Shown: positions 4,221 to 20,180 of the stretch, one piece after another
How the letters are laid out: every line of letters begins with the position of its first letter
Position numbering within the stretch: the stretch's first letter is position 1
Source of the DNA: Thermodesulfobacteriota bacterium
Lineage (GTDB): Bacteria > Desulfobacterota > Desulfobacteria > Desulfobacterales > SURF-7
Reading direction: 5' to 3'
NCBI GenBank assembly: GCA_049320885.1
Contig: JBMORA010000013.1
Coordinates: 64,001-128,000, forward strand
Length of the DNA: 64,000 bases
Notes under the pieces: model-generated
The model's input: the letters and a program-made list of their open reading frames with translations, nothing else
Database searches by the model: none
Told to the model about the DNA's origin: nothing
Program-made: the position numbers and the translations under genes

Positions 4221-5456
4221 TCAAAAGGAAACGGAAAACACACTGCGGTCCAGGCACCAGTAGGGCACCGCCTGACCGGCGGAAAGCGTCGTCACCCCTT
4301 CCGGAATTTCCACCAGGGCCTGGGTCCGAAACATGCCCGTCAGCCGGCTTTTCAGTTTCTCTGGCCGCAGAAGCGCCCTGTCTTCCTGTAAAATGATCCG
4401 ACACTGGACGAACTGGGTCCAGTCGGCCTGGCCATTGACGGGTGTTTCCAGCGCGCCGGTCAATCGCAGGTAGGGAAAGCGGGAATGACCGGCCATTTTC
4501 AGGATACCGGGCAGGGCGATCATCAGGAAGGCCATTTCGTTCGAGGTCGGCCCACCGGGAAGACAGAACACCGGCTTGCCGTCCAGGATAGCCAGGCCCA
4601 CCGCTTTTCCAGGTCCCATTCGGACCCGGTGAAAAATCTGCTCGGCGCCCATGGCCGCCAGCACCTTGACGATCAGATCCCGGTCGCCCTTCCAGGCGCC
4701 GCCGGAAGTCACCACGACATCGCTGCGGGAGAGGAGGTCGGCAACGGCCGTCTGGATGGCGCCACCGTCATCAGCGGCATGCAACAGGTTTGTCTCCAGC
4801 TTTTTGGTACGCAGCCAGGCTTCCTGGAGGGCGACATTGCTGGCGAAGAGCTTTCCCTTTTCCAGAATCCGGCCGGGCAGAAGCACCTCGCTGCCGGTGG
4901 CCAGAAGGCCAACCCGCGGATGGGTGAAAACCGGCACGGCGGCGATCCCGCCGGCCACCAGCAGACTGGTCAGGGGAGGCGTGATCACCATGCCCGCATC
5001 GGCCAGTATTTCGCCGGACTTGACATCGGCGCCCTGGGGCAAAATATTTCTCCCTTTGGACGCATCGGCCAGCGCCAATACGGTGTCGCCCTCCGTCCGG
5101 GCGAATTCTTCCGCCAGCACCGCATCGGCCCCGTCCGGAATCGGCGCTCCGCTGAGAATCCGCAGGGCGTTTCCGGGAAGAACCTTCCGGGCGGAGCATT
5201 CTCCAGCAGCCACCCGACCCGACAATGCCAGCCTGACCGGAGCGGTTTCAGAGGCCGTTGTCAGATCCCTGCTGAACACGGCGAATCCGTCCTTGATGGA
5301 GGCGTCCACGGAAGGAGAGTCCACCATGGAATATACCGGTTCCGCGCAAATCCTGCCGGCCGCCTGGAGTATCGGGAGGATTTCCTTACGCGGCGCAGGC
5401 ATGTGCGTAAGGGTCAGCCGAAGGGCCTGTTGAAAGCCGATATCGTATCGTTTCAT
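4221..5456 (-). CDS. moeA: Molybdopterin molybdenumtransferase MoeA
   Basis: SPSVDASIKDGFAV, ILSGAPIPDGADAV, ATGSEV, TSGG..GDRD, MGPGK, LPGGP. Confidence 0.85.
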   Translation of the reverse strand: MKRYDIGFQQALRLTLTHMPAPRKEILPILQAAGRICAEPVYSMVDSPSVDASIKDGFAVFSRDLTTASETAPVRLALSGRVAAGECSARKVLPGNALRILSGAPIPDGADAVLAEEFARTEGDTVLALADASKGRNILPQGADVKSGEILADAGMVITPPLTSLLVAGGIAAVPVFTHPRVGLLATGSEVLLPGRILEKGKLFASNVALQEAWLRTKKLETNLLHAADDGGAIQTAVADLLSRSDVVVTSGGAWKGDRDLIVKVLAAMGAEQIFHRVRMGPGKAVGLAILDGKPVFCLPGGPTSNEMAFLMIALPGILKMAGHSRFPYLRLTGALETPVNGQADWTQFVQCRIILQEDRALLRPEKLKSRLTGMFRTQALVEIPEGVTTLSAGQAVPYWCLDRSVFSVSF

Positions 5457-6163
5457 TCCGCCTCCTCGAAAATTTTCTGGATCATGCGGAGATGAAGAAT
5501 CGGCAGCAGTTTATTGATCACGCCGATGGCGTCCCTGGCCAGCTTCGAGGCCGTGTCCCGGTCGATTCCTTTTCCGGCGATCCGCTTGCTGAACAGCTCC
5601 ACTTCCTTGCGGGCCAGGAATTCGATCAGATCCAGATGGACCCGTAAATGTTCCACCTGGAAATTCAAGTCCTGGCTCAGACCGACCTTTCGCAGTTCCG
5701 CCACGATTTCGGTCAGGCGGATACACTCCCCATCGAAACGGCCTTCCGGACCGGGCAGGATCATTTCCAGCCGCACCATGTCCGCGATTTCCTCCGGAGT
5801 CAAACCCGTATGGTGCGACAGCTCCTCGGCGCTCATGGACGGGGGTTTGCCGTTGGAATGGCCGTTCTCGAAAAGCGGCTTGTCGATCTCCCGGACAAGG
5901 GCCCTGGAATCCCCGCCGTTTGAAAAATCCATATCCGCCAGCAAGGTTTTGATGATATCCAGCGGCAGAAAACGCGTTTTTTGCAATTCCTTGATCACCC
6001 GGATACGCTCAATATAGCTTTCGTCGTAATAGGCCATATTCTTATGGGTTTTCACCGGATGGGGCAGCACTCCCTGATGGATGTAGTAGCGGATGGTGCC
6101 ACCGCTGACCCCGGTGATCTCCGCGAGCTCTTTCATCTTCAACAATTTTTGCTTTTTCATCAC
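5453..6163 (-). CDS. MerR-family transcriptional regulator
   Basis: N-terminal HTH MKELAEITGVSGGTIRYYIHQGVL..YYDESYIERIRVIKELQ..LPLDII; 4-bp overlap with moeA. Confidence 0.9.
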   Translation of the reverse strand: MMKKQKLLKMKELAEITGVSGGTIRYYIHQGVLPHPVKTHKNMAYYDESYIERIRVIKELQKTRFLPLDIIKTLLADMDFSNGGDSRALVREIDKPLFENGHSNGKPPSMSAEELSHHTGLTPEEIADMVRLEMILPGPEGRFDGECIRLTEIVAELRKVGLSQDLNFQVEHLRVHLDLIEFLARKEVELFSKRIAGKGIDRDTASKLARDAIGVINKLLPILHLRMIQKIFEEAE

Positions 6164-6181
6164 AGGCGTTTTGTTTGATGG

Positions 6182-7207
6182 CTATTTGCCGAACGGACAG
6201 ACCGGAAAACGGCATTCCGGGCAGTCCAGACATAACCCGCCGTGTCCCATAACGGCGAGTTCCGTCCGATCGACGGTTTCACCTGCCAGGATCCTCGGCA
6301 GGATCAGATCCAGCACGGTGGTTTTGTGGTAGATGCCGCAGGCGGGAACCCCCAGGACAGGAACGTCGCCGATATAGGCCAGCATGAACATGGCTCCGGG
6401 CAGTATCGGCGCTCCATACAACAATCGCCGGCCGCCGGCCTGCTGAACGGCCGCGCGGGTAACATCGTCCGGATCCACGGACATGCCTCCGGTGGTCAGA
6501 ATCAAATCCAGCTCGTCCTCAATGAAGGACAAGAGTCGTTTCCGGATGACCGCCGTGTCGTCCGTTACGATTTCAACCCGCAACACCCGGGCTCCGAGAT
6601 CGGTGAGCTTGCTTCTCAGGATCCCTTCGAAACGATCCGGAATCAAGCCCTCGGCGATTTCGCTTCCGGTGATCAGAATCCCCACCCGGGCCTTCCGGAG
6701 GGGCTTTATCGCCAGCAGCCCGGAGCAGTCCCCGGCGATATCCACGGCCTGTTCCACGATCTCCTTGCGAATCAGGAGCGGAATGGCGCGGGTGGCGGCG
6801 ATGATATCACCCTTGTGCACCACGGTGCCATGGTGTCGGGTGGCGCACATGACCTCGCCGAGCAGGTTGATGCGGGTCAGGGCGTCAATCTGGACGGCTA
6901 ACAGGCCGTCCTCCAAGGCGCAAAGCTTCAGCTTGCCCTCCACCGGCTCTCCATTCCAACCGACGCCGTCGCCGCAGAAGGCTTCGGCCATGACCATCAC
7001 CGCATTGTCCTCATGCAGGTAATCGTCCGGCTGATCGATGACAAAAATATGGCGCTTGCCGAGCCGTTGCAGGTGGCACAGATCGTCGTCGCAGATGCGA
7101 TGACCTTTTTTGAAGGCCCGGCCTTTGAATTCGCCGGGTCTGATTTCCGTGATATCATGAGCCAGAATGTGGCCCACGGCTTCCTCGGTTCTGATGGTTT
7201 TCAGCAT
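6182..7207 (-). CDS. MoeA-like molybdopterin-binding protein with Cys-rich C-terminus
   Basis: AVGHILAHDITEI..KGRAFKKGH, TGSE, TGGMSVDPDDVT, YGAPILPG, GHGGLCLDCPECRFPVCPFGK; alternative TTG start at 7219. Confidence 0.8.
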   Translation of the reverse strand: MLKTIRTEEAVGHILAHDITEIRPGEFKGRAFKKGHRICDDDLCHLQRLGKRHIFVIDQPDDYLHEDNAVMVMAEAFCGDGVGWNGEPVEGKLKLCALEDGLLAVQIDALTRINLLGEVMCATRHHGTVVHKGDIIAATRAIPLLIRKEIVEQAVDIAGDCSGLLAIKPLRKARVGILITGSEIAEGLIPDRFEGILRSKLTDLGARVLRVEIVTDDTAVIRKRLLSFIEDELDLILTTGGMSVDPDDVTRAAVQQAGGRRLLYGAPILPGAMFMLAYIGDVPVLGVPACGIYHKTTVLDLILPRILAGETVDRTELAVMGHGGLCLDCPECRFPVCPFGK

Positions 7208-7301
7208 GGTTTCACTCAATCTGTTTCCGAACCGCTCAAGCGACCGCCCGGGAACCTTCCGTCTCCGGTGGTCGGCAACCCGTTCCCCGAGCGGTTACCG
7301 G

Positions 7302-9902
7302 TTACGGTTGTTCCACTGGTTCCGTCCGGCAGGGTTGATACCGAACCGTTGCCAGGGACGGGTCGTCCACTCCGTCAAAAATCAGTTCCTCGATATCCAC
7401 GCCGCCGGGGCCGCCCCAAAAGCATTGCAGGGCCTCGAAGGCCGGCTGTCCAGCCGGATTGGCGTTAAACAGCTGAAAGCCACTGTTGCCGTAGATATCA
7501 TTATATTCGAACACCATGGCGCCGTTCAAATAAATTCCGCCCACGCCATCATGGATCGCGGATTGATTGGCCACGACCCGGTTTCGGGTGAAGTTTTCAT
7601 TTTTAATACTGACTCCCCAAAAATTCAAGTAAGCGGCGCCACCATGTTTCCCGGATATCCGGTTGTCGCTGATCCGGTTGCGGTTCAGGGAGCTGTTGGC
7701 CTCGGCGAACACCCCGCCCCCCTGCTCCGCCCGGTTGGAAAAGATATCATTGTTTTCCACCAGTGCAAAGGTGGAAAATATGCCGCCGCCGTTTCCCCGG
7801 CACTGGTTGTTCTCAATCCGATTTTCCATCACGCCGGCCCTTGAGGCCCAGACGCCCCCGCCGTCGCCGCCGCCGCGGTTGTTTTCGATCCGGTTGTTCA
7901 GGATGTTGACGGCCGTATTGGAATGGTACCCATAGGCAAAAATGCCGGCGCCGTCCTCTTCGGCCTGGTTGTCCTCAATTGCATTTTCCTGGATTCGGAT
8001 CGGTCTGCTGCCATAGGCGTAAATCCCGCCGCCGTTGCTGGGACTCCGGTTCCGCATGATCCGGTTCTGGTGGATGGTGACGGCCGCGTTACGGATGGTG
8101 ATGCCGCTGCCAAGATTGTCGCGGATGAGGCACTGTTGAATCCGCGGCCCGGTTTCCTCCATGACGATTCCTCTGCCGTGTTCGATGATGCAATGCCGCA
8201 GAATTCCGCTTTGGTCGGCCGGCCGGTTTTCGCCGGCCGGATCGGAGGACGCCGCATCGGCGAGACTTTTCCGCTCGAAGAGCAGATGCCCCCAGGGCTG
8301 TTCGGACGAACCGGTAAAAAGGATCGGGCGTGACGCTTCTCCCTCGGCCTGCAGGACTCCTCGGGTTCGAATGATACTGCCCGGTGCAAGATGCAGAACG
8401 GCGCCGGGCAGAATTCTGACGGTTGCGTTTTCGGCGATGAACAGGTTGCCGGAAACGGTCAGCGGCCTTCCCGGGACCGACCCGATCACCTGGTCGGCGA
8501 CAATGGCGCCGGATAAAACCTCCGGTGATGGCGGCGGCAGCACTCGGTCGACCTGGGCCCCCCCGCCCGGGAGCGCCGGAGGCGCTTCGGTAATCCAGGC
8601 CATGGCCGGTGCCCGGCGATCCACCAGCCCGACGTTCGAATCCTTCAGCCAGTCGAAGATGAGGGCATCGATGATGGCCGGATCGGCGGTTCCCCAATAA
8701 TTTCCCATTGCGTTCAGATCCGTCGCCAGGCTATGCGTCTGGACCCTGACGGCATAACCGCCTGGAGCGATGATGTTGTTGCGCGTCAGCAGGGGATTGC
8801 CGGACACCGCTATGGTTTCTCCGGTTTGGGAATGGGGCGGGGTGTTACCCAGGAAGGTGTTGTTTTCAATGCAGCCTTCACCGAAATAAAACAGGCCGCT
8901 GCCTTTTCCCGGCGCCGCCTGATTGTCCGCTACGGTGTTGCCCTGGAGAATTCCTTTCTCCGCATACACCCCCCCGCCGCAATCCGCCCGGTTTTTTTGA
9001 ACCTGGTTGTTTTTCAAGGTGGAGCGCACGGCGTAAATCCCGCCCCCGCTATGATCGGCCTGGTTGTCGAACACCCGGTTGTCTTCAACCCGGCACGCAT
9101 AGGCTACCAAACCACCGCCGTAACGGTCGCTGCGGTTTTTTTCAATGAGATTGCGCCGGACGGCAACCGTGCCGGTATCATAGGCGAAGGCGAAAATGCC
9201 GCCGCCGCCGTCGCGCCCGCCGCTGGACTGATTGCCATACACGTGATTATCGGCGATCAGGAAGGACTTGTCGGTATAAACCATAATACCGGCTCCGTTG
9301 CCGGCGGCGGTATCCTGAACCGTGCTGTTGTCGCTGATCCGGTTCGCAATGATTTTTCCCGTACCGTATTCAATACGCACCGCCGAGGACACATGGTTGC
9401 GCAGGATGCAGTCCTCGATATGGACGGCGGCAGCCCGGATGGTGATTCCCCGGCCCCCTTCGATAATGCAATGCCGGAACAGATTGACGGGCAGGCTCCC
9501 GTCTTCCAGAAGCCAGCCGCCGAAGCAATCGAAATGATCCCAGGGTTCCCGGCCCAGCGGGCCGATACGAATCGGCTCCGCTGCCGTGCCTTCGGCGATG
9601 ATGCGCCCCTGGCTTCTGATCTGGACCCCGGGTGCCAGCAGCACCTGAACGCCGGGTTCGATGGTCAGGGTCACTTCCGGCAGGATGAAGATGTTCTCCA
9701 TGATCCGGCAGGGGCTGTTTCCCTTTTTCCAGACCGTATCGGAAACCAAAATGGTATTGAAACCGGGAATTTCGAGTGGCTGGACATGCTGCAATATCAA
9801 ACCGCGGCAGGCGGCGACCCCCAGAAGCAACAGGACGACGGGGATCACCCGGACCGCGGTCCGGCAAGGATTCCTGGTTGCATAGCGTCCGTATGACCGC
9901 AT
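7302..9902 (-). CDS. Right-handed parallel beta-helix repeat lipoprotein, internally duplicated
   Basis: Hydrophobic leader with lipobox-like VAAC; many N-x(n)-GGG(I/V) repeats; two homologous halves; start placed at MRSYGR because the longer ORF overlaps the cytochrome gene. Confidence 0.7.
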   Translation of the reverse strand: MRSYGRYATRNPCRTAVRVIPVVLLLLGVAACRGLILQHVQPLEIPGFNTILVSDTVWKKGNSPCRIMENIFILPEVTLTIEPGVQVLLAPGVQIRSQGRIIAEGTAAEPIRIGPLGREPWDHFDCFGGWLLEDGSLPVNLFRHCIIEGGRGITIRAAAVHIEDCILRNHVSSAVRIEYGTGKIIANRISDNSTVQDTAAGNGAGIMVYTDKSFLIADNHVYGNQSSGGRDGGGGIFAFAYDTGTVAVRRNLIEKNRSDRYGGGLVAYACRVEDNRVFDNQADHSGGGIYAVRSTLKNNQVQKNRADCGGGVYAEKGILQGNTVADNQAAPGKGSGLFYFGEGCIENNTFLGNTPPHSQTGETIAVSGNPLLTRNNIIAPGGYAVRVQTHSLATDLNAMGNYWGTADPAIIDALIFDWLKDSNVGLVDRRAPAMAWITEAPPALPGGGAQVDRVLPPPSPEVLSGAIVADQVIGSVPGRPLTVSGNLFIAENATVRILPGAVLHLAPGSIIRTRGVLQAEGEASRPILFTGSSEQPWGHLLFERKSLADAASSDPAGENRPADQSGILRHCIIEHGRGIVMEETGPRIQQCLIRDNLGSGITIRNAAVTIHQNRIMRNRSPSNGGGIYAYGSRPIRIQENAIEDNQAEEDGAGIFAYGYHSNTAVNILNNRIENNRGGGDGGGVWASRAGVMENRIENNQCRGNGGGIFSTFALVENNDIFSNRAEQGGGVFAEANSSLNRNRISDNRISGKHGGAAYLNFWGVSIKNENFTRNRVVANQSAIHDGVGGIYLNGAMVFEYNDIYGNSGFQLFNANPAGQPAFEALQCFWGGPGGVDIEELIFDGVDDPSLATVRYQPCRTEPVEQP

Positions 9903-9934
9903 GGCGGCACCTCGTTTGAAATGGGTTGACTGGT

Positions 9935-12184
9935 TTAATAACTGGTCCAATCCACATCGCTTCCGGGACGGACCGCTTCCATCTGTTGGTCTTCCTGGAT
10001 TTCGGGAACTTTGTCCATGAACATCAGGAAGCGGGCCGTGTACTCGATCCACATTTCCGGGTCCGGAATCCGCGGCACCTTGTCCGGGGTATAATACACA
10101 TACGGCATTTTGGTACCCCGGCCCGCATAGACATCCGGATCACGCAAAAAATTCTTGATCCAATCGAACCGCAGCCGAGACTTGGAGAGCATCAGGTTGA
10201 TGGACAGATCCTCGACCTTGACATCCGGGGGCAGCGTGCCGTCGAGGGCTACCGGATGGCATTGCATGCATTTGTCACTGAGCACGCGGTATTCCCCCAT
10301 CTGTATGGTTTCCGCCTCATAATCGGTTCTTACCGGGAGCAGCACGTAAGGGGCGCGGGGTTGAATCGATTCGGACGGCGGCGCCTGCAATACGAAATGC
10401 TCGATCAGTTCCGTTTTGTCCGCATAGCGGAAGGCAAACTCCGGCATGCGCATTTTCAGCCAGGGCCGCATCTCGGTGGGCCGGCTGAGAAACTGAAAAA
10501 GCCATTGGGGCTGGACCCGTTCGCCTTCGCCCAGCAGGCGGGGCGGAATCATGGATTTCAACGCCAGATGTTCGCTGATGCGCGGAGCCTGGTCTTCGGC
10601 CAGCTGATGACATCCCGCGCAGTTGTAATGGCCCAGGAGCCATGTGCCTTGCCGGCGGATGCGCATCTCGGGACGGGTGGCGGACAGGTAGCCGGCCGGC
10701 AGATCATAGGCGTCCTGGTGCAGGTAAAAAATACCAAGGGCCTCGATTTCGGCATCCCCAAAAACGGACTTGCGCACATAATCGGGCATTTTCAGGGGCA
10801 TGTCCTCGGTGGCAAACAGATCGGGCTGCCGGATCTTGGACAAGAGCCAATCCCATTTGGTGCGCGGCACGGTGGTGTCGTTGCCGAAGGGCAATTCTTC
10901 GAGACGCTTGTGGGCGACTTCCGCCACGTCAAGGCCGGCCTTGGGCAATTTGCTCAGGGATTCGATGGGGTGGCAGCCATAACAGCCGTAGGTCTGCACC
11001 GCCGACCGGCCTTCGGCCGCATCGCCTCCGGATAGCTGTTCCGGTAAAACCCCGCCGAGCCGTTGAGCGACCTGTTGCTCCCGCAAACCGTCGAGATAGA
11101 GGCACAAATGACCGATGTCTGCCTCCGTCAGCATCATTTTCGGCATGGCGGTCCGGGAAATGAGTGCGCCAGGATTGCGCAGCCAGGCGGCCGTCCAGCC
11201 GGAATCCAGCTTCAAACCGGCATCCGCCAGGTTGGGCACCCGGTCCGCCAGTGACCCCTGATCCGGCAGCACGCTGTGGCAGGCGATACATCCTTTGTCC
11301 GTAAACAGCGTTCGTCCCAGGTCCCTGTTTCCCGCTGGTTTTCCGCCGGTGTTTACCGCCGGATCGATGGTACGCAGGGTGGTCAGATAGGCGACGATAT
11401 GGCGCACGGTGTCTTCGGTCAGCCGAAAACCCGGCATAAGCGTCCGCCGGCGGATGGCCGAAGGTTCCGTTATCCAACTGAACAACCAGGCCGGAGTCCG
11501 GATCTTGAGGCCAATGCCGTCAAGGGCGGTGGACATGGGCGGCAGGTTTTCGGCCGCGGGAGTTGCGTGGCAGCCGTAACAGCCATGTTCGACAAAAAGG
11601 GTCTCGCCATAGGCAGCTTTTTCAGCCCCCGCAAGGCCGAAGGCGCTGTCATGGCATCCATAGCAAAGACCCTGGATAAGGTTCAAGGGCACGCGCGGCC
11701 TGGGCCAGTTGGCCTCATGGCCATGGGCTTTCGCACTGGTGAGCGCAGTTCCCTGGCCATGATGGCAGAGGGTGCATCCGAAGCGGTTGGGCGGGTGATG
11801 GTGGAGCATCTCGGCCGGATGGGAGCGCAGGGGAAGCTCCGCGTCTCGGAAAAGGGAATTCTCCATTCCCAGATGGCAGGTTCCGCACAGATCCCGGACA
11901 CCGGCGTCCGGCAGAAAAATCTGCCGGATGGTGACCTCCTCATCGGACCGGACCTCCTGATACAGCTTCCGCCATTTCATCAGGTCTCCCTCGTTTCCGG
12001 ACGCTTCGGCGGTTTCCACCTTTTCCCTCAGCCTCTGGGAATACGCTTTCCGGTAGTCCCGCTGAATGGCTTTCCACTCCTGCCGTTCGTCGGTCTTAAT
12101 GGTCGCCAGCACCAGGAGCAGCAAGCCGCTCGACAGGATCAGAAACAGAATGCGATGGGATGGTTTTGATCGAATGGGAGCCAT
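9935..12184 (-). CDS. Membrane-anchored octaheme cytochrome c
   Basis: N-terminal TM helix; eight CxxCH motifs (CGTCH, CTLCH, CYGCH x3, CIACH, CAGCH, CMQCH); repeated distal MP motifs. Confidence 0.9.
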   Translation of the reverse strand: MAPIRSKPSHRILFLILSSGLLLLVLATIKTDERQEWKAIQRDYRKAYSQRLREKVETAEASGNEGDLMKWRKLYQEVRSDEEVTIRQIFLPDAGVRDLCGTCHLGMENSLFRDAELPLRSHPAEMLHHHPPNRFGCTLCHHGQGTALTSAKAHGHEANWPRPRVPLNLIQGLCYGCHDSAFGLAGAEKAAYGETLFVEHGCYGCHATPAAENLPPMSTALDGIGLKIRTPAWLFSWITEPSAIRRRTLMPGFRLTEDTVRHIVAYLTTLRTIDPAVNTGGKPAGNRDLGRTLFTDKGCIACHSVLPDQGSLADRVPNLADAGLKLDSGWTAAWLRNPGALISRTAMPKMMLTEADIGHLCLYLDGLREQQVAQRLGGVLPEQLSGGDAAEGRSAVQTYGCYGCHPIESLSKLPKAGLDVAEVAHKRLEELPFGNDTTVPRTKWDWLLSKIRQPDLFATEDMPLKMPDYVRKSVFGDAEIEALGIFYLHQDAYDLPAGYLSATRPEMRIRRQGTWLLGHYNCAGCHQLAEDQAPRISEHLALKSMIPPRLLGEGERVQPQWLFQFLSRPTEMRPWLKMRMPEFAFRYADKTELIEHFVLQAPPSESIQPRAPYVLLPVRTDYEAETIQMGEYRVLSDKCMQCHPVALDGTLPPDVKVEDLSINLMLSKSRLRFDWIKNFLRDPDVYAGRGTKMPYVYYTPDKVPRIPDPEMWIEYTARFLMFMDKVPEIQEDQQMEAVRPGSDVDWTSY

Positions 12185-12190
12185 AACGCA

Positions 12191-12919
12191 CTAAACTGAA
12201 AAATGAGTGGTTGTAATAATGTATTTCAGGTGAAAAAAAATCCGCAGCAGCATTTTACCGGGAATGCTGAACATCAGAAGAATCAACACCCAGGCGAACA
12301 GGAATTTGAGGCGATCCGCCTGTTGGAACCGCTTCCTGGCATATAAAGCCGAAAGCAGCAGTCCCGCTCCGAAGTAAGCCGCTATCAGCGACAAACCGGT
12401 ACTGTTGGGCAGGCTGGACAGCGGCGGTTCAGGAGGCTTGACGATGCTCCAGTCCTCCCACGGCCAATAGAAATGCCAGCTGGGTCCGCGTAAAAACTGC
12501 CCGATGAGGATCAGGCCGAACCAGAGGGCATATCCGCAGAGGAAAATGGATATGGCCAGGCGCCGCCCTCGGAAACCATAACTGCCGACCCCTTTTGGAT
12601 TGGGGTCGATGTAAGGGAGACACATCAGTCCGAAAATGATGAAAAAGGGAAGGCACACGCCGGCGATCCACGGGTCGAAATACACCAGAACCTCCTGAAG
12701 ACCGACAAAATACCAGGGGGCTTTGGCCGGATTTTCCGTCCAATTGGGGTCGGCGATTTCCTTCAGCGGTGCGTCCACAAACAGGGACCAGACGCACAAA
12801 ACGATCATGGCGGCAAGAATCGCCAGCAACTCCTTATATACCAAATCCGGAAAGGTGAAGATTTCGTTTTCTTTTTCCGCTTCGTTCCGGATTTCAGAAC
12901 CCGTTATCAGTGTCTTCAC
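12191..12919 (-). CDS. Cytochrome b C-terminal part / subunit IV-like protein
   Basis: GTG start; FPDLV, DAPL..IADP..TENPAKAPWYF.GLQE, PYIDPNP. Confidence 0.85.
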   Translation of the reverse strand: MKTLITGSEIRNEAEKENEIFTFPDLVYKELLAILAAMIVLCVWSLFVDAPLKEIADPNWTENPAKAPWYFVGLQEVLVYFDPWIAGVCLPFFIIFGLMCLPYIDPNPKGVGSYGFRGRRLAISIFLCGYALWFGLILIGQFLRGPSWHFYWPWEDWSIVKPPEPPLSSLPNSTGLSLIAAYFGAGLLLSALYARKRFQQADRLKFLFAWVLILLMFSIPGKMLLRIFFHLKYIITTTHFSV

Positions 12920-12984
12920 GAGCGCCTTCCTTGTTTCCTGTCATCAATTGCCGGATACCATATGCATCCAACCATCGGCCTCCG

Positions 12985-13734
12985 TTACAGTGGCCGCGAA
13001 ATGCCGCCGTCCTTGCGCACCCGCCAGAAATGAACCAGCATCAGGAGGGCGCACAAAAGCGGTAGAAGAACACAATGCAGCACATAAAAGCGCAACAAGG
13101 CATTCCCCCCCACTTCCGAATCCCCCAGCAGCAGATATTTCATGTCGTTGGCCCCATGAATCCCCAACAGTTCGTGAAACGGTCCCTCCACGCCCAAAAA
13201 CGGCGTGGCCGCCGCCATTTTCGAACCCACGGTGATGGCCCAGAAGGCGATCTGGTCCCAGGGGAGCAGATAACCGGTGAAACTGAGCAGCAGCGTCGTC
13301 ACCAGCAGGAGAACTCCCACCACCCAGTTGAATTCCCTCGGGGGTTTGTAGGAACCGGTCAAAAAAACCCGCAGCATGTGCAGCATGACCAGCAACACCA
13401 TGGCATGGGCCGCCCAGCGGTGCATGTTGCGCAGGAACAGGCCGAAACGGACCGTGTGCTCCAGCAGTTTCATGTCGAGATAGGCATATTCCGGCAAGGG
13501 CCGGTAATAGAACATCAGGAGAATGCCCGTGACGGTTTCCACCAGAAACATAAAGAGCGTCAGTCCGCCCAGGCAGAAAGTGAAACGCACCCTCGCCGCC
13601 GTTCGCGGAATGGTCACCGGATGCAGGTGCAGAAAGACGTTTGCCGAAACCGCCAGAGAACGATTTCGGGGCGTGTCCTTGAATGGATGGCGGAACACCG
13701 AACGCCAGAGCCGTGTCGCGGTTATCTTCTCCAT
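12985..13734 (-). CDS. Cytochrome b6-like N-terminal subunit of a Rieske/cytb complex
   Basis: [14 protein letters not shown]...[32 protein letters not shown]...VHF; four heme His residues. Confidence 0.95.
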
Positions 13735-13746
13735 GGGCGCTTTCCG

Positions 13747-14478
13747 TTAGGGGGCCAGCAGGGTTTTCAGGTACCGGCAATCCGCTGCCAGAAACTCGTG
13801 GGTCAATTGAAAAAGCGCCTCGTAAAAGTGAAATACCTCCAGGCAGGCGTCCTCCGAGTCCGGCAGATTTTTCTCCAGCCGGCGGCAGCTTTCCAACAGT
13901 TGGCCGGTCCAAAGCAGGGGATGCCGTTCCAGAAAATCCTGCTCCGCCCTCATATAGGGAAACACATCCCGGTCGCTCTGCAGGGCCATTAATTCCTTGA
14001 AGGTCAAAAAATGCAGGAACTCCATTTGATAGCAGATATGATCCGGCCGGTCCTCCATGCTGCCTTCGCCGTAACTCAATCCGAAATGATTGTAAAACAG
14101 AATGAGCTCCCGGAAGATCGCCTGACGGTCTTCCCGGTAGAGCCCTTCCAACAGGGGTATCGGCGGACTGCCCGGTCCGGCTTCAAACAGCCGGATGAAT
14201 TCCACTTCGATGTTTTCATCGGAGACCGTTGCCAGTCCGCGGAGTCGGGCTTTTTCCTTTTCCCGCCACTCAAAAGGGTAGGGAAGATTTTCCGTCAGGC
14301 GACCCAGGGCCTGTTCCAGATCACCGTTTTGGGCCTGACGACGGAAGGGTTCGTCCGGATACCGGAATATTTCCGCGATGAGCGAGTACATGCGGCTGCG
14401 ATTGGCAGTGGTGATCTCCGCCTGGTTTTTCAGCTGGTCGGTAAAGAGAGCTTCCATGGAAATATCCTTTATGATCAT
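13747..14478 (-). CDS. TorD/DmsD-family chaperone (EbdD-like delta subunit)
   Basis: EFIRLFEAG, FYNHFGL, RPDHICYQMEFLHFL, FLERH. Confidence 0.85.
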   Translation of the reverse strand: MIIKDISMEALFTDQLKNQAEITTANRSRMYSLIAEIFRYPDEPFRRQAQNGDLEQALGRLTENLPYPFEWREKEKARLRGLATVSDENIEVEFIRLFEAGPGSPPIPLLEGLYREDRQAIFRELILFYNHFGLSYGEGSMEDRPDHICYQMEFLHFLTFKELMALQSDRDVFPYMRAEQDFLERHPLLWTGQLLESCRRLEKNLPDSEDACLEVFHFYEALFQLTHEFLAADCRYLKTLLAP

Positions 14479-15608
14479 GTTTGTTTCGGTTTTCGCTGCA
14501 ACAGGGCCGGATCCTGTCCAAAAGGACCGAACATGGCCTTCCAGTCCTTGGCGATCAGAAGTTCCATCAGTTCGGATTTCCCGCCTTTTCGGACCTTTTC
14601 CATTTCCTGCTTCATGGTTGTGAGGGCCGTTTCGACCTCGGGGCCGAACAGGAACCGCAGATAGGCCATGGGAATGCGGTCCTTGGTGGGTTCGATGCGG
14701 CCCTGTTCATCAATGGCAGGCGGCGAAAGGGGCGGCACATAAAAAACATTGGGCTCCGTGCCGTATTCCGGATGAAGGGGCAGGGCCACCTTCCACACAT
14801 GGACGAGCTTGTGGATAATCCCCTGCTTGTCGTCCAGGAATCCCACGAAGCGCACCCGTCCGGTGCATTGACGCGCGCAGGCGTTGGCGACCTTTTCCTC
14901 CAGACGGGGATAGCAGAAGATGCACTTCATGCTCGTCTTGGTAAGGAAATTGAAGTAAATGACTTTATACGGGCAGGCCTCCAGGCAGAACCGGTACCCC
15001 TTGCAGCGTTCCTGGTCGATGACCACGGCACCGTCCGCTTCCCGTTTATAAATCGCATTCCGGGGACAGGCATCCACGCAAGCCGGATAGGCGCAGTGGT
15101 TGCAAATTCTCGGCAGGTAGAAATAAAAAGAGTTCGGATACTTCCCGCCGCCCTGATCTTCATCCCAATTCATACCCCAGTTGGGCGTGGAACCGTCCGG
15201 GTTGCGGGCCTCCAGATGTTTATCGCCGGCCTTGGAAGTAAACACTTCGTCGTAGTTGAACTGCCAATTGTCCCCGAAATCCGTGCGGGTGGGAAGCTGG
15301 CCTCTGACCGGATCCCGGACCTTGCCGCCGAAGAGCACCTTGTAGCCCCCGCCCATTCTTTCCCAGTCTTTGGGAGAGCCTTTCCCGGGTTGGGTGTTCA
15401 CCTTGTTCCACCACATATATTCGCGTCCCTCGATCTGGGTCCAGAGGGTTTTGCAGGCCATGGAGCATAGCTGGCAGCCGATGCATTTGTTTAGATCCAT
15501 CACCATGGCCACCTGTTTTTTGCATTCGCGCAATTTGTCCTTGGAGGCCTGAAATTCATTGGCCAATTCCTTCTCGCGATCCGATAGTTCTTTTTGATCA
15601 ACCGGCAT
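14475..15608 (-). CDS. Fe-S beta subunit of a type II DMSO-reductase-family enzyme (EbdB/AhyB-like)
   Basis: CIGCQLCSMACK, YMWWNKV, WDEDQGGG, CNHCAYPACVDACP, CKGYRFCLEACPY (3Fe-4S type), CIFCYPR..ACARQC, EYGTEPNVFYVPP; AGGAG RBS. Confidence 0.92.
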   Translation of the reverse strand: MPVDQKELSDREKELANEFQASKDKLRECKKQVAMVMDLNKCIGCQLCSMACKTLWTQIEGREYMWWNKVNTQPGKGSPKDWERMGGGYKVLFGGKVRDPVRGQLPTRTDFGDNWQFNYDEVFTSKAGDKHLEARNPDGSTPNWGMNWDEDQGGGKYPNSFYFYLPRICNHCAYPACVDACPRNAIYKREADGAVVIDQERCKGYRFCLEACPYKVIYFNFLTKTSMKCIFCYPRLEEKVANACARQCTGRVRFVGFLDDKQGIIHKLVHVWKVALPLHPEYGTEPNVFYVPPLSPPAIDEQGRIEPTKDRIPMAYLRFLFGPEVETALTTMKQEMEKVRKGGKSELMELLIAKDWKAMFGPFGQDPALLQRKPKQT

Positions 15609-15619
15609 GTGAAGTCTCC

Positions 15620-16294
15620 TTATTCCAAAATTAGTTTCCGCCACTCCTTGCTGAAGGCCTTGACGCCGCCGCGTTCGCCGTTGCCCCCTTCCCATACCGC
15701 AAAGCCGATGACCGTTTCCGAACCCGGCGCAAGGTTCACCGCTTCCTCCTTGACGGAAAGCGGCCGGGCGATCACCACCCGCCAGGTCTTGCCCTCCCAT
15801 TTGGAGCCGGATACCAGGGACGATTCCTCGGTATACAGGGAGGTGGAAAGGCCGTGGGCGATCTGGTTTTTCGGCTTCTCCTCAAAATCCGGACGCCAGT
15901 ACCAGCTGTTGGTGGGAAAATCCTTGGAGCCCATTTCCTTGATTGGGGTTTGATCCGCCGATTTGAAGGGCAGCAGCAGGGAGACGCCGTCCGGGAAGGT
16001 GCCCACGTCACCGATGGTGTAATTGGGAGTTTCACTGCCCCACTCCAACCGGAAAAAAATATCCTGCCCGTTATGGGCCGCTTTGACCTGTAATTCCTTG
16101 ACGGCGCCGATGACCTTTTCATCGAAAGTCGCCTTTATATACGGTGACGGCTGGTTGGCCAGCGGAGTAGCCGCCGTTTCGACCAGCAGGCTGTTCAGCC
16201 GGCTCCATACGACCGCCCCGGGATCCAGCATTTCCTTGCGGGGGGCGGACAGTTTTTTGGCGATGATTTGCTGATTCTGGTTTTCATTGCTCAT
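15620..16294 (-). CDS. Soluble heme b gamma subunit (EbdC/AhyC-like, DOMON-like fold)
   Basis: VKAAHNG..IFFRLEW, FPDGV, EMGS...WYW (Met ligand), W.VVIARPL, FAVWEGGNGERGGVK (Lys ligand). Confidence 0.9.
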   Translation of the reverse strand: MSNENQNQQIIAKKLSAPRKEMLDPGAVVWSRLNSLLVETAATPLANQPSPYIKATFDEKVIGAVKELQVKAAHNGQDIFFRLEWGSETPNYTIGDVGTFPDGVSLLLPFKSADQTPIKEMGSKDFPTNSWYWRPDFEEKPKNQIAHGLSTSLYTEESSLVSGSKWEGKTWRVVIARPLSVKEEAVNLAPGSETVIGFAVWEGGNGERGGVKAFSKEWRKLILE

Positions 16295-16342
16295 CTTTCG
16301 ATCTCCTTTTGAACCACCCTGTAAGTATTGGAAAGCGGCGCA

Positions 16343-19258
16343 TCAAACCTTCGCTTTTTCGACTTCCACGGCTATGGCGCGGTCCACCGGCTGCAGGCAC
16401 CAGTTCCAACGCCAGAAATTCAGATGTCCGTACCCTCCCGCCAGATCCAGCCATTTGATCATGCCGGGAATGGCAGCGTCATAGCTTTTCCATTTTTTGA
16501 ACATGTAGGGCTCCCAGGCGTGATAGACAATCACTTGTCCGGGCTGCGATCCTTTGCCGGGCTTGGCCGCGGCGGTGAGTTTCACATGGATGTAGAAATC
16601 GTCGAAATCATTATAGACATGTACGTAGTCATCATTTTTGATTCCACGTTTTTCCGCGTCCTCCGGGTTCATGAACATAAAGGGCCGGCCCTGGTGGGTG
16701 CGCAGCAATTGCTGCCCGGTGACCCAGATGGAATGGATGCTCCAGCGCTGATGCCCGCTGGTCATGGTGAGGGGGTAGTTCCCGCCGATGTTCGGATTGG
16801 GTTTGTGAACCGGCAGCTGCTCCTTGGCTTCCACAAACCAGGGATGATCGATATAGAACTGGATCCTGCGGTTATAGGTCGGGTAAGGGATTTTCTTGCC
16901 CGTATGCCAGGTCAGGGGAATGATGGGTTCATCGGGCTTGATGTCCGTCGCCAGGTTCATGCTCACCGCATCGAAGGGCGAAACCCCCACAAAGCGCACG
17001 ATGCCTTCCTGGCGCATACGGGCGACATTGGTTCCCTTGGGCAGGTTGCCCAGGAGAACGCTGGCCTCCAAGGCATCTTCCATGATTTCCTCGAAGTTAT
17101 TGGCTTCCATGGCCTGGACTTTTCCGAGATTTTTCAGGTTGATTTTCCGTCCGTCGCGGAGCGTGAACTCCGTCTTGCCTCGTTTCTCGGCCGCGGCTTC
17201 GATCTTTTCCGCCAGCATGCGGCAGATATCCCATTCCGGCTTGGACTCCCCGATGGGCTTGACAGCCTGATCGGTGAGGGTCAGCCAGGGCACATGGGGG
17301 GTGGGAAACCGGGTGTCCAGCTTTTCATAAAAGCCGGCGCCGGGGAGGGCGTAGTCCGAATACAACAGGGTCGTGCTCCAGCGGGTTTCGAAACCGAAGA
17401 TCAGGTTGAACTTGGGCCATAGCGAGGTCAGGATGTTTTTGTTGAATCCGCGGTTTTTTCTGGCCGGATTGGTGCCCATATAGAAATAGACCTGGGGCTT
17501 TTGATCCCTGGCCGGCTTGACGAAGCCGTCCCACCAGCCTTTGGTGATGGCCTCCTCCATATATTCCGGGAATTCCCGTTTCATCGTGGGGCAATGCCAG
17601 GACTTTCGATCCCAGGCGGCCTTGTAATCGGAATGGAAATACCAGAGGAAGTTCGGAACGGTCCAGTTCAGCTCCTTGCGATCCCGTTCACGTTCCAGGT
17701 GGATGGACAGCATTTCATCGGTCAGGGTCGGATCCAGCCGTTTGAAATGCGCCATGATTTTTTTATCCTTGGGAAGATGTTGGATGGTGGCCATATTGCC
17801 GATCCGCGGTTTCATGATCTGCAGCAGGGCACCCTCAAAAAGGGATTCGTTCCAGCCGCGGATGCCGCTGCCTTTCTTGCCGAAACTGCCGGTGAGCGCC
17901 AGCACCAGACACATGCTTCGCTCAATCAAATCTCCATGATAGTATTTCGGTGAATTCCATCCCACCATGACCTGGATATGCCCCATGGCATTGGCGCACT
18001 TCTGCGCCAGCCGCCGGATGGTGTCCGGGTGGGTATTGCACAGCTTGGCCGCTTTTTCCGGTGTATAGTCGCGGTTGAGCAGCTCCTTGAGCTCATTGAA
18101 CGTCGGTTGCACCTTGACGGCAGAGCCGTCTTTCAGTGTGACCGTGAAGACCCCGGTCAATGCCGGATCGCAGGACAGCGTCAGGGTTTCCAGGGCGGCC
18201 TTTACCGGTTTGCCGGTTTTGGCGTCCCAGTAGTAGAACTGATCGTCGCGTCCGCCCGCCTCCATATCGGCCACCCGCAAGAAACGCTGATTGTCCATCC
18301 GGACCAGCAGCGGCAGGTCGGTCTGCTCCTTGACAAAGGGCGTATCGATCTGGTTCTTTTCGATAAGCACCTGGCAGACAGCGAGTCCCAGGGCCGTATC
18401 GCCCCCGGGATCCACCGGCACCCATTCGTCGGCATGCATGGCGCTGGGGGAGTAATCCGGTGCGATGGTGATGACTTCCGCGCCGTTGTAACGCGCCTCG
18501 GCGATGAAATGGTAACAGGGAATCCGGGTATACACCGGATTCATGTGCCAGATCAGCAGGAGCTTGCCGAAAAACCAGCCGTCGGCGGAGTCCATGAACT
18601 GAAATTTGCCCATGGTTTCATACACTCCCCGGTTGAAATCGCCGATGGTGGTGTTCGTGTCGAGGGAAACCGCTCCCAGCAGCACGGAAAGACGGTGAAC
18701 GGCGATAATGTGCAGGTACCCGCCGTTGCCCGGACCGTTCTCGTTGATAATGGATTCCGGACCTTCTTTTTCCATGGCGTCCAGTATCCCTTCGGCGATA
18801 TCTCCCAGGGCTTCATCCCAGCTGATTTTTTTCCATTTGCCGCTGCCGCGTTCGCCCACGCGCTTCATGGGATATTTCAGCCGGTCCGGGTTGTACATCA
18901 TCAAGCTGTAAGAGGCGCCCTTCTGGCAGCCGCGGGGATTGAAATCCGGTCCGGTGGGATCCACCACCGGGTATTTGGCCGCCTGCTCCTCGCGAAAAAC
19001 CACCCCGTCCTTTGAATACACCCGCCAGAGGCAGTTGCCTGGATAACAATCCACCAGATGGGTGCCGAAGGTGACCCGGTCCCAGGTCCATTCCTTGCGG
19101 TGCAGATCTTCCCAGCGGCCGTAGTCCCATTCGTTGAGCACTTTTTCCGCTGCATTGGCATTACCACCTAGAAACCCCAAGGAATTCAATGACAGCATCA
19201 CGGCCGAGGCTCCCGTAATCTTTAAAAACTCCCGCCGATTCAGTTCCAATTGACGCAT
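16343..19258 (-). CDS. Mo-bisPGD catalytic alpha subunit, ethylbenzene-dehydrogenase class; probable alkane C2-methylene hydroxylase AhyA-like
   Basis: Tat signal NRREFLK; FS0 motif THLVDCYPGNC...NPRGCQKG; IGD Asp Mo ligand; NPVYTRIP..HFIAEARYNGA; SGHQRWSIHS. The Ahy assignment rests on recalled similarity only. Confidence 0.85.
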   Translation of the reverse strand: MRQLELNRREFLKITGASAVMLSLNSLGFLGGNANAAEKVLNEWDYGRWEDLHRKEWTWDRVTFGTHLVDCYPGNCLWRVYSKDGVVFREEQAAKYPVVDPTGPDFNPRGCQKGASYSLMMYNPDRLKYPMKRVGERGSGKWKKISWDEALGDIAEGILDAMEKEGPESIINENGPGNGGYLHIIAVHRLSVLLGAVSLDTNTTIGDFNRGVYETMGKFQFMDSADGWFFGKLLLIWHMNPVYTRIPCYHFIAEARYNGAEVITIAPDYSPSAMHADEWVPVDPGGDTALGLAVCQVLIEKNQIDTPFVKEQTDLPLLVRMDNQRFLRVADMEAGGRDDQFYYWDAKTGKPVKAALETLTLSCDPALTGVFTVTLKDGSAVKVQPTFNELKELLNRDYTPEKAAKLCNTHPDTIRRLAQKCANAMGHIQVMVGWNSPKYYHGDLIERSMCLVLALTGSFGKKGSGIRGWNESLFEGALLQIMKPRIGNMATIQHLPKDKKIMAHFKRLDPTLTDEMLSIHLERERDRKELNWTVPNFLWYFHSDYKAAWDRKSWHCPTMKREFPEYMEEAITKGWWDGFVKPARDQKPQVYFYMGTNPARKNRGFNKNILTSLWPKFNLIFGFETRWSTTLLYSDYALPGAGFYEKLDTRFPTPHVPWLTLTDQAVKPIGESKPEWDICRMLAEKIEAAAEKRGKTEFTLRDGRKINLKNLGKVQAMEANNFEEIMEDALEASVLLGNLPKGTNVARMRQEGIVRFVGVSPFDAVSMNLATDIKPDEPIIPLTWHTGKKIPYPTYNRRIQFYIDHPWFVEAKEQLPVHKPNPNIGGNYPLTMTSGHQRWSIHSIWVTGQQLLRTHQGRPFMFMNPEDAEKRGIKNDDYVHVYNDFDDFYIHVKLTAAAKPGKGSQPGQVIVYHAWEPYMFKKWKSYDAAIPGMIKWLDLAGGYGHLNFWRWNWCLQPVDRAIAVEVEKAKV

Positions 19259-19280
19259 ATCCCCTCCTGATAAATTGACG

Positions 19281-19574
19281 TTACGGTTCCGCCGCCGCGA
19301 CCAGACGGATGGCGTTCCACGGGCATCCGGTCACATGACTGCTGTCCGGTCCGCCGGTTTGACAATTCCCGCAACCGCTGCACCGTGATGAATCCACCTG
19401 CATTTTCTTGAACGGATAATTCTCCGGGTCTTCCATCAGCCGCAGGGCGTCGCGGCTGCAAAAAATCCGGCAGATCGGGCTGCCGCCACAGCCGGTGCAG
19501 CCCTCCGTCACCCGGGCAATCTTCCTGGTCCCGGTGCGGAGGAGGCGCTTCTTTTCCGCCGGTCCCGGATCCAT
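19281..19574 (-). CDS. Small 2x[4Fe-4S] ferredoxin-like protein
   Basis: CTGCGGSPICRIFC and CSGCGNC...GCPWNAI; ATG directly follows the Rieske stop codon (TAAATG). Confidence 0.8.
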   Translation of the reverse strand: MDPGPAEKKRLLRTGTRKIARVTEGCTGCGGSPICRIFCSRDALRLMEDPENYPFKKMQVDSSRCSGCGNCQTGGPDSSHVTGCPWNAIRLVAAAEP

Positions 19575-20180
19575 TTACGCCTTCACCTGGATGTAAATTC
19601 GTTTTTCTTCAAACTCCGCGGCAGAATAAATCTTGCGGGTGTCCACGAGTATATACCCCTCCGCATCCTCACGGATGCTCAAACGATCCAGGGGTCTGGG
19701 TGCCGGTCCGGCGAACTGCCGGCCGTCGGAATGAAATTCGCTGCCATGGCATGGGCATTTGAAGGTTTTGATCCCGGGAAACCAATTCACCGTGCATCCC
19801 AGGTGGGTGCAACGGGCATACAGGGCATATATCCGGTCGGCTTCCCGGATGACGAAAAACCGGTGTTCGGTTTTGAAGCGGTCATCCACGGCGATCACCC
19901 CATGGGCGTCCGGCGCGCCTGCGGCGATGAATTCGGCCAGGGGACCGATTCTGAATTGGCTGGGAGGCTGGAACACGACCGAAGGGAAAAAAAATGTAAC
20001 GGCTTCAAAAGTCGCTGCGCCCGTGCACACAAAAAACGCGCCCCAGCCGCCGGCTGAAAGACATTTGTGCAGGAATTCCCGCCGCGACGCCGGCGGCAGG
20101 GAGGATCGGGCCTGGGCAGCCGCCCGAAGCAGACCCTCGATGTTCCCATTTCCCGGATTGAGCTCCCCACCATTTTTCAT
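19575..20180 (-). CDS. Rieske [2Fe-2S] subunit of a quinol:cytochrome c oxidoreductase
   Basis: SRREFL Tat motif plus TM anchor; CTHLGC, CPCHGS, GPAPRPL. Confidence 0.95.
   Translation of the reverse strand: MKNGGELNPGNGNIEGLLRAAAQARSSLPPASRREFLHKCLSAGGWGAFFVCTGAATFEAVTFFFPSVVFQPPSQFRIGPLAEFIAAGAPDAHGVIAVDDRFKTEHRFFVIREADRIYALYARCTHLGCTVNWFPGIKTFKCPCHGSEFHSDGRQFAGPAPRPLDRLSIREDAEGYILVDTRKIYSAAEFEEKRIYIQVKA

Follow-up and report, generated by a model that had tools for sequence, protein, structure and literature searches.

The window analysed in this work, i.e. 64,000 nucleotides (nt) from the 5.6 Mb, 98% complete genome of a Thermodesulfobacteriota bacterium, contains at positions 4221-20180 of the minus strand a row of 13 co-directional genes, which combine a molybdenum enzyme of the ethylbenzene dehydrogenase (EBDH) family with a b6f-like complex of Rieske protein and cytochrome b, an octaheme cytochrome c and a small ferredoxin. 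With little room for doubt, the enzyme is an AhyA-type hydroxylase, and its coupling to the cytochrome complex is a dedicated one. It is also probable, at a clearly lower level of confidence, that electrons are passed through the octaheme cytochrome and the Rieske protein uphill to menaquinone; for this second statement the substrate class, the contacts among the proteins, the direction of flow and the source of energy are those that we infer. All 13 tightly packed genes claimed by the initial annotation were found, by combining the list of open reading frames (ORFs) with family searches and sequence inspection. They are spaced by -4 (a 4-nt overlap) to 82 nt and would be co-transcribed.

Comparison of the alpha subunit with the chains of solved structures produced scores of 746 bits for EbdA (2ivf_A), 497 for the perchlorate reductase PcrA, 183 for NarG and 142 for NxrA, by which alpha is not of the NarG/NxrA type. 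The equivalog models of the EbdA family (NF042978-NF042981) were not reached, the scores being 798 against 2000 for alpha, 115 against 400 for gamma, 458 against 740 for beta and 108 against 360 for delta. On the other side, the subunit set is fully of EBDH type: beta and delta exceed the cut-offs of TIGR03478 and PF02613, respectively, and gamma is an EB_dh protein, while delta remains under the cut-off of TIGR03482 (134.6 versus 152.3 bits). Residues D207, K438 and P176 of alpha correspond, in the phmmer alignment to 2ivf_A, to D223 (the molybdenum ligand), K450 and H192 of EbdA; similarly, M121 and K212 of gamma align with Met108 and Lys201 of EbdC, which we take to be the ligands of the high-potential heme b. 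For ahyA sequences, conservation of the Asp and the Lys is reported, together with the replacement of His192 by proline, in the available text of PMC7803848, which also gives OQX63933.1 (Desulfococcus sp. 4484_241) and WP_012173623.1 (strain Hxd3) as the two reference sequences. The first of these is contained, in a large protein collection, within a cluster 71% identical to the window alpha, and identity to the loci of the AhyA reference clade ranges between 70 and 73%. These comparisons support the assignment of alpha to the AhyA type of the EBDH family, rather than to the oxyanion reductases.

A phylogenetic analysis was performed with FastTree on 117 alpha sequences, of which 80 derive from the fetched loci and the window, 35 are representatives of 50% identity clusters obtained by an exhaustive search and 2 are named proteins; 45 of the 117 rows were also analysed with IQ-TREE in quick mode. 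Outgroup labels were taken from NCBIfam scores and source annotations, and the trees were built without the named EbdA, CmdA, S25dA, PcrA and SerA. In both trees the window alpha falls, with support 100, within a Thermodesulfobacteriota clade including OQX63933.1, where the genus of the window forms a separate branch. The sister of this clade is composed of uncultured bacteria, Abyssubacteria and Poribacteria records among them (support 100); the next branch outward is a single Deltaproteobacteria MAG (metagenome-assembled genome), here locus L027 (support 100), followed by Chloroflexota and other clades. Further out than these is P0163, the top scorer on the EbdA model (1235 bits), and the most distant rows are P0190 and P0191, annotated as chlorate reductase or dimethyl sulfide (DMS) dehydrogenase, P0192, annotated as nitrate reductase, and P0306, a true NarG above the cut-off of TIGR01580. 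The grouping with oxyanion reductases, named beforehand as the outcome speaking against an alpha of the EBDH class, did not occur.

The genomic context of related alphas was evaluated in two samples. One is made up of 401 Desulfobacterales genomes, where an alpha was considered present at E<=1e-100 and from which 16 loci of alpha-bearing genomes were fetched; the other contains 74 loci from named MAGs, taken from the best 80 matches, all of which are MAG records. All ten genes, in the order Rieske-ferredoxin-alpha-gamma-beta-delta-cytochrome b6-subunit IV-octaheme c-beta-helix, were found in 13 of the 16 Desulfobacterales loci. One of the remaining three has nine genes up to the contig end, and two (L108, L116) are second, lone alphas, whose genomes also carry a full locus. 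The alpha of locus L104, which has the full ten-gene order, is identical in sequence to OQX63933.1, and therefore the published AhyA reference itself sits in this architecture.

In the MAG sample, alphas of the superclade defined by at least 57% identity occur in 30 of the 74 loci: 12 are accompanied by the cytochrome b6 module, with the gene order unchanged, 7 are cut by contig ends beforehand and 11 are lone, without beta or gamma in the available flanks. The 12 module-bearing loci, all within the superclade, are distributed over three lineages, and the module is absent from each of the 44 loci outside the superclade, one of which contains an unrelated cytochrome b match (35%, on the opposite strand). 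At least four families of Desulfobacterales and two other lineages maintain the interleaved order, and the ten-gene arrangement is not a chance neighbourhood. By synteny, the combination of ahyA with Rieske, cytochrome b and multiheme cytochrome c genes, pointed out by the initial annotation for the window, turned out to be a fixed part of AhyA-type loci. The order is rearranged to alpha-gamma-beta-delta-Rieske-ferredoxin-b6-subunit IV-octaheme in L027, a locus in which the ferredoxin remains among the genes of the cytochrome complex, away from alpha.

Co-occurrence was evaluated on the same 401 genomes, 19 of which contain the alpha. A cytochrome b6 copy of at least 76% identity is present in 20, namely in all 19 alpha-bearing genomes and in one 79%-complete genome without a detected alpha; below these 20 orthologues, the next best identity drops to 64% and lower. 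The Rieske, cytochrome b6, subunit IV and octaheme genes have no paralogues in the source genome, and hence the complex encoded in the operon is its sole Rieske/cytochrome b complex.

Lone AhyA-like alphas, devoid of beta, gamma and delta in the flanks at hand, were collected at L008, L015, L016, L018-L020, L022, L023, L026, L028, L052, L108 and L116. Several are often found in the same MAG, and in one case four alphas (L016, L018, L020, L024) share a MAG in which only L024 has the full operon. This distribution suggests substrate-diversified isoenzymes sharing one beta/gamma set.

Concerning the cytochrome complex, the Rieske protein contains the cluster boxes CTHLGC and CPCHGSEF, a SRREFL motif similar to those of twin-arginine translocation (Tat) signals and one membrane helix, and matches the b6f and bc1 Rieske models of NCBIfam below their cut-offs. 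In the second box the Ser is kept and a Phe is found where Tyr is usual; the same Ser/Phe pattern is present in the Kustd1480 Rieske protein, with a midpoint of +335 mV in a host whose menaquinone is at about -70 mV (values as given in the available text of PMC12954380). The solved chains nearest to cytochrome b6 are b6f cytochrome b6 (166 bits) and bc1 cytochrome b (90 bits). Its heme ligands H105, H119, H220 and H235 do not vary among 19 orthologues, nor does C54, located within FCLGG. The latter aligns with the Cys of YCLGG in the cyanobacterial cytochrome b6 chain 7r0w_I, which presumably binds heme cn covalently. Judged from the motifs, the hallmarks of the b6f type are present, i.e. the CxHxGC and CxCHxS boxes of the Rieske protein and the two His pairs of cytochrome b6.

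Subunit IV is conserved in 18 orthologues, with a mean column identity of 66% and including the APWY motif, to be compared with the PEWY-type Qo motif, and a search with its profile found no solved relative among structures; its assignment, based on position, a match to ExtQ below the cut-off and conservation, appears weaker than those of the other genes. The octaheme cytochrome, encoded after subunit IV in every complete locus, begins with a membrane helix and comprises three close N-terminal hemes and five class-I-like units, each with a downstream MP motif. The ferredoxin lacks a signal peptide, has a basic tail at its N-terminus and is probably cytoplasmic; all its 8 Cys are invariant in 18 orthologues. 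An atlas look-up returned generic ferredoxin clusters only, and a weak similarity to the flavoprotein encoded at L129, limited to the cluster motif, was detected (E 2e-4 over 40 residues). The prediction of a complex of cytochrome b6 and subunit IV with the ferredoxin as partner scored 0.05 against a mark of 0.32, a result which counts neither way. The gene content originally described for the operon is correct, ferredoxin included; what had been passed over is the role of the latter, which was listed without one, although it is conserved and, in L027, moves with the Rieske and b6 genes.

The host was taken by the initial annotation to be a sulfate reducer, with dsrAB/aprAB and the absence of a cytochrome c oxidase or denitrification sink to be confirmed, and the search of the source genome agrees with this. 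Genes dsrAB and aprA are present, no cytochrome c oxidase was found, NapA did not appear above the cut-off, NirS (cytochrome cd1) was not found, and no NarG-like sequence was detected using alpha as a query. In all, neither a cytochrome c oxidase nor a denitrification chain was found in the genome, which could accept the high-potential electrons of a periplasmic cytochrome c. The heme-copper family is represented by a single protein, a NorB with an N-terminal cytochrome c-like domain, adjoining Hcp and Crp, which by its domain architecture is a quinol-type nitric oxide (NO) reductase. In the corresponding region (L125, G000:C9:362000-380000), Crp, hybrid-cluster protein and quinol-type NO reductase are encoded in a row, adjoined by a molybdate transporter and a ModE-like TOBE gene; this is probably a nitrosative-stress cluster. 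The genome also contains six glycyl-radical enzymes similar to pyruvate formate-lyase (L119-L124, on contigs C28, C17, C53, C46, C9 and C25), none of which was classed by NCBIfam as a fumarate-adding (alkyl- or benzylsuccinate) synthase; one is near the cut-off of the sulfopropanediol dehydratase HpsG (991.7 versus 1000).

EBDH-type enzymes oxidise alkyl carbons with water in the periplasm, and transfer electrons via five Fe-S clusters as far as the heme b of gamma, the midpoint of which in EBDH is about +250 mV. In the mechanism proposed for the window, the molybdenum enzyme, exported by the Tat pathway, would act in the periplasm, using water to hydroxylate an alkyl carbon. Electrons would pass from the substrate to the molybdenum bis(molybdopterin guanine dinucleotide) cofactor (Mo-bisMGD), to the five Fe-S clusters of alpha and beta and to the Met/Lys heme b of gamma, and then, through the octaheme cytochrome c and the Rieske protein, to the Qo site, where menaquinone would be reduced. 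Since the electrons are released above the potential of menaquinone, the complex would have to run against its usual direction, the cost being paid by the membrane potential, possibly through a reverse Q cycle driven by the proton-motive force, by a low-potential electron, or by both. Payment by membrane potential would parallel the reverse electron transport considered in PMC3578206 for Nitrospina, a nitrite oxidiser. Outflow of electrons from the AhyA enzyme is favoured because of its clade membership, of the residue pattern, of the lone alpha paralogues and of an alcohol dehydrogenase gene in L024. This gene (L024:8869-9945, zinc-dependent, from an uncultured-bacterium MAG) is located between ferredoxin and alpha, inside the operon, as would fit an enzyme with an alcohol product.

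A number of observations weigh against this reading. Rieske/cytochrome b complexes are reversible, so that gene order gives no direction; moreover, if the Rieske protein shared the potential of Kustd1480, each electron sent to menaquinone (about -70 mV) by a simple reverse Q cycle would cost more than one membrane charge. That AhyABC acts on alkanes is itself a proposal, for which the proteomics is known second-hand, through the available text of reviews, and with 70-73% identity to the reference clade the substrate may differ. The source genome does encode a cytochrome bd oxidase and NrfA, in addition to the quinol-type NO reductase; these three, to judge from what is known in other organisms, are fed by quinol and are not cytochrome c sinks. 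The premise of the initial annotation that Rieske/cytochrome b complexes are uncommon in sulfate reducers is contradicted by cytochrome b homologues (E<=1e-20), detected in 145 of the 401 sampled Desulfobacterales genomes and hence not rare in this order. Finally, seven further cytochrome b6 module loci were fetched, the five nearest in the order (57-64% identity) and two more, and in three of them (L127, L128 and L130, from genomes G139, G383 and G226) the Rieske/b6/subunit IV/multiheme module is adjoined by EB_dh gamma, beta and delta genes. The alpha of L128 scores 589 bits against the Kuenenia nitrite oxidoreductase (NXR) A subunit, and an NXR-like enzyme would, in anaerobes, most simply act as a quinol-fed nitrate reductase; for such loci, electrons passing from quinol to the enzyme are the more obvious reading.

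Such modules, together with the reversibility of this type of complex, the likeness of the Rieske box to that of the high-potential anammox protein and the nitrite- and NO-handling enzymes of the genome, could be taken to indicate that electrons move forward, i.e. that the complex oxidises menaquinol in a normal Q cycle and feeds, through gamma and beta, a molybdenum enzyme reducing a periplasmic oxidant; Rieske and cytochrome b genes are indeed located within the nar cluster of the haloarchaeal pNar. This is considered distinctly improbable for the window, where alpha falls inside the AhyA clade, is closer to the sequence resembling the EbdA model than to the rows annotated as chlorate/DMS enzymes or pNarG or to NarG, and has the published ahyA residue pattern. 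To our knowledge, no member of the AhyA clade is a reductase. The many lone alpha paralogues, a pattern which we do not know for respiratory reductases, resemble instead the situation of steroid C25 dehydrogenase, which has multiple alpha isoenzymes, and the alcohol dehydrogenase gene inside the L024 operon points the same way. Even less credit, to the point of being very improbable, is given to a mere co-location, in which the complex would serve another periplasmic task, such as detoxification or the cytochrome c pool, and share with the enzyme only regulation or cofactor assembly. The beta-helix lipoprotein and the ferredoxin, both without an assigned role, and the wide distribution of cytochrome b homologues are compatible with it; this particular cytochrome b6 orthologue is found instead in all the alpha-bearing genomes and in a single other, incomplete one, and its genes are not simply adjacent to those of the enzyme, because Rieske and ferredoxin precede alpha while b6, subunit IV and octaheme follow delta, with gaps of 0-65 nt, an interleaving maintained across the families and lineages mentioned above. 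An unlikely variant, to which more weight is nonetheless given than to either of these, keeps the same wiring and changes the substrate from n-alkanes to isoprenoid, sterol-like or alkyl-aromatic side chains. It would agree with the 70-73% identity to the reference clade and the separate branch of the genus, with the many diverged lone alphas of the sister lineage, with the absence of visible alkane-pathway genes in the rest of the window and with the six glycyl-radical enzymes, which could serve hydrocarbon activation; it is opposed by the gene order, fully common to the reference clade, and by the His192-to-Pro change reported for ahyA.

The uphill transfer of electrons to menaquinone is thus retained as the preferred reading, and the price of a reverse Q cycle, if the Rieske protein is Kustd1480-like, makes the ferredoxin of interest as a source of low-potential electrons. 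As a tentative extension, to which a low probability is assigned, the ferredoxin may be a subunit of the b6 complex on the n-side of the membrane, and menaquinone may be reduced at the Qo site by a reversed bifurcation: one high-potential electron would arrive from the hydroxylase via octaheme c and Rieske protein, and one low-potential electron from reduced ferredoxin via hemes cn, bn and bp. Consistent with it are the invariant Cys of the ferredoxin, the order of L027, the heme cn Cys, the Rieske box of the Kustd1480 type and the genes for GltD-like flavoproteins in the module loci L129 and L130. Such a mechanism would mirror the NAD(P)H-forming one proposed for the anammox complexes and, if true, would let a sulfate reducer re-use electrons at about +250 to +330 mV without a full reverse Q cycle driven by the proton-motive force.

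The related modules form a second family (L126-L132), found in other Desulfobacterales, with a cytochrome b6 55-64% identical to that of the window. A 197 amino acid CarboxypepD_reg-like gene precedes Rieske in L126, L127 and L128; the GltD-like flavoproteins of L129 and L130 are of the NAD(P)H type, and L129 also contains a cytochrome c peroxidase; in L132 the multiheme cytochrome c is fused to an EB_dh domain. By its gene associations, the module family as a whole, that of the window included, resembles an all-purpose link from the menaquinone pool to periplasmic heme-b molybdoenzymes, in which the enzyme would set the direction.

The position of each feature is reported in Table 1.

Table 1. 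Genes of the operon and the adjacent upstream region, in window coordinates. Scores are in bits.
Feature	Position	Strand	Family match or other evidence
Rieske [2Fe-2S] subunit, bc/b6f type	19575-20180	-	PF00355 42.3 bits
2x[4Fe-4S] ferredoxin, 97 amino acids	19281-19574	-	PF12838; 8 Cys
AhyA-type molybdopterin alpha subunit, 971 amino acids, twin-arginine signal	16343-19258	-	PF00384, PF01568
EB_dh heme-b gamma subunit	15620-16294	-	PF09459 116 bits
Four-cluster Fe-S beta subunit	14475-15608	-	TIGR03478 504.1 bits, above cut-off 480.7
NarJ/EbdD-type delta assembly chaperone	13747-14478	-	PF02613 55.7 bits, above cut-off
Cytochrome b6, 249 amino acids	12985-13734	-	PF00033 144.6 bits
Subunit IV-like membrane protein, APWY motif	12191-12919	-	PF00032 17.3 bits, under cut-off 20.7
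Membrane-anchored octaheme cytochrome c, exactly 8 CxxCH	9935-12184	-	PF00034, PF13442
Lipoprotein, two NosD-like right-handed beta-helix domains, lipobox VAAC	7302-9902	-	PF13229 108 bits
MoCF_biosynth-domain protein	6182-7219	-	PF00994 80 bits
MerR-family regulator	5453-6163	-	PF13411 71 bits
MoeA molybdopterin molybdotransferase	4221-5456	-	PF03453, PF00994, PF03454
Upstream intergenic region, candidate promoter region	20181-20643	.	Shared with divergent lipoprotein gene

Some of the borders differ from those of the ORF list. The ORF of beta extends to 15800, and a start at the Met located 11 nt past the gamma stop was preferred; similarly, the start of the beta-helix gene was placed later than in the longest ORF. 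A longer ORF (12944-13912), overlapping the cytochrome b6 gene, has no family match and was rejected in favour of the one reported. A 14th gene, corresponding to the ORF 20177-20599, 5' of Rieske, was also discarded, as it has no family match and its low-complexity translation resembles that of non-coding DNA. An AT-rich stretch and a TTGACA hexamer were noticed by inspection in the upstream region, where a sigma-70 scan found no passing site; sigma-70 and terminator scans are at chance level. A simple sigma-54 pattern found no site 5' of the operon, and 13 sites in the window against 13.6 expected. Part or whole of the stretch is contained in ten DNA metagenome runs, and RNA runs did not appear among the sequencing runs listed for it.

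The accessory genes of the operon are conserved to a different extent. The beta-helix lipoprotein, kept in 13 of the 16 fetched loci, matches the NosD family below the cut-off, and all its atlas neighbours are NosD/Beta_helix clusters. The MoCF-domain protein is devoid of the MoeA N-terminal domain, has a Cys-rich C-terminus and a paralogue (47% identity) on contig C46, and its gene occupies the same position only in loci of the same genus (L101, L102). The flanks of related loci contain MoaA, MobA, MoeA, TatA, FmdE-like and one or two MerR genes, with MerR located upstream of Rieske and, in L103 and L109, MoeA after the beta-helix gene. The dedicated cofactor and regulator genes proposed by the initial annotation have therefore counterparts flanking the module in relatives too. 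No obvious downstream genes of an alkane pathway were seen in the rest of the 64-kb window.

Other features of the window were also recorded. Divergent from the operon, on the plus strand (20644-25919), a row of lipoprotein genes encodes a LpoB-like protein, a 445 amino acid protein, two LPP20 proteins and a 418 amino acid protein. A type I restriction-modification system is located at 34078-42669 of the minus strand, with HsdR, HsdS and HsdM; a Schlafen/AlbA_2-HATPase_c_4 gene separates R from S, and at 38-40 kb of the window the GC content falls to about 0.51. At 54691-58411, again on the minus strand, genes for a Fer4_5 polyferredoxin-like membrane protein, DUF362 and DUF6599 are found upstream of transketolase.

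The interest of the operon lies in the disposal of electrons. Oxygen-independent alkyl hydroxylation releases electrons at a potential suited to denitrifiers, while sulfate reduction and menaquinone are near or below -70 mV, and the fate of these electrons in sulfate reducers has been a question ever since alkane-degrading Desulfococcus was suggested to use the hydroxylation route. Every complete locus examined pairs the AhyA-type enzyme with a b6f-like complex, an octaheme cytochrome and a ferredoxin, which provides a defined set of proteins, accessible in strains already in cultivation. In surveys of oil reservoirs and sediments, the pair of ahyA and cytochrome b6 might mark the pathway more specifically than ahyA alone, because many ahyA-like sequences occur as lone paralogues or stem from lineages in which the complex is missing.

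AhyABC of Desulfococcus oleovorans Hxd3 and Desulfococcus sp. 4484_241, a putative hydroxylase of the C2-methylene of alkanes according to the available text of PMC7803848 and PMC3653055, shares with the window the alpha clade, the residues and the gamma, beta and delta subunits. The window alpha is about 20 residues shorter than the references (971 versus 991-993 amino acids) and derives from a different family of the order; in addition, the MerR and MoCF genes, located downstream in the window, are upstream in the reference loci. In the text available for PMC7803848 the word 'Rieske' does not occur and 'cytochrome' occurs once, and, in their available parts, the papers on ahyABC name these genes alone, without cytochrome genes. 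A literature search found no account of the cytochrome genes of the ahy locus or of their wiring, subscription reviews and supplements being outside its scope. AhyABC as a proposed enzyme and the complexes of Rieske, split cytochrome b and octaheme are already known; within the same search, no report was found of a hydroxylase always encoded with its own b6-type complex, of the ferredoxin as a fixed part of the complex, of the pairing beyond sulfate reducers, or of a sister module with NXR-like enzymes.

Compared to EbdABCD of Aromatoleum aromaticum (PDB 2IVF), the enzyme of the window belongs to the same family, has the same subunit set and keeps the molybdenum Asp, the Lys and the Met/Lys pair of gamma; it differs by the Pro in place of His192 and by an alpha score below the EbdA equivalog NF042978. 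The electron acceptor of EBDH, an enzyme of a denitrifier, is a soluble cytochrome c, and we know of no Rieske or cytochrome b genes in its operon.

Operons encoding a Rieske protein, a split cytochrome b and an octaheme cytochrome c have been described in Nitrospina gracilis, Ca. Kuenenia stuttgartiensis and Ca. Methylomirabilis oxyfera, in the available part of PMC3578206, where the subject is the reverse electron transport of Nitrospina. Common to them and to the window are the four-helix b6-type cytochrome b with subunit IV and the octaheme replacing cytochrome f/c1, the octahemes being likened by description; in the window, the genes of the complex are enclosed in a molybdenum hydroxylase operon. 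The two anammox complexes, as presented in the available text of PMC12954380, have a NAD(P) oxidoreductase where the window has a small ferredoxin. Among NCBIfam models, the best matches are ExtP, ExtQ and ExtS of Geobacter (NF040969-NF040971), with 275.7 bits for b6, 46.1 for subunit IV and 39.0 for the octaheme, all under the respective cut-offs of 290, 150 and 100, and the context is that of a hydroxylase and not of a selenite/tellurite reduction operon. The petI complex of Acidithiobacillus ferrooxidans is an example of the uphill bc1 complexes of chemolithotrophs, working with ubiquinone in an aerobe, and is not known to be encoded in the operon of the substrate-oxidising enzyme or to have a ferredoxin or heme cn. 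Its principle is similar to that proposed here, in that a dedicated Rieske/cytochrome b complex pushes high-potential electrons from the periplasm to quinones, at the expense of the membrane potential.

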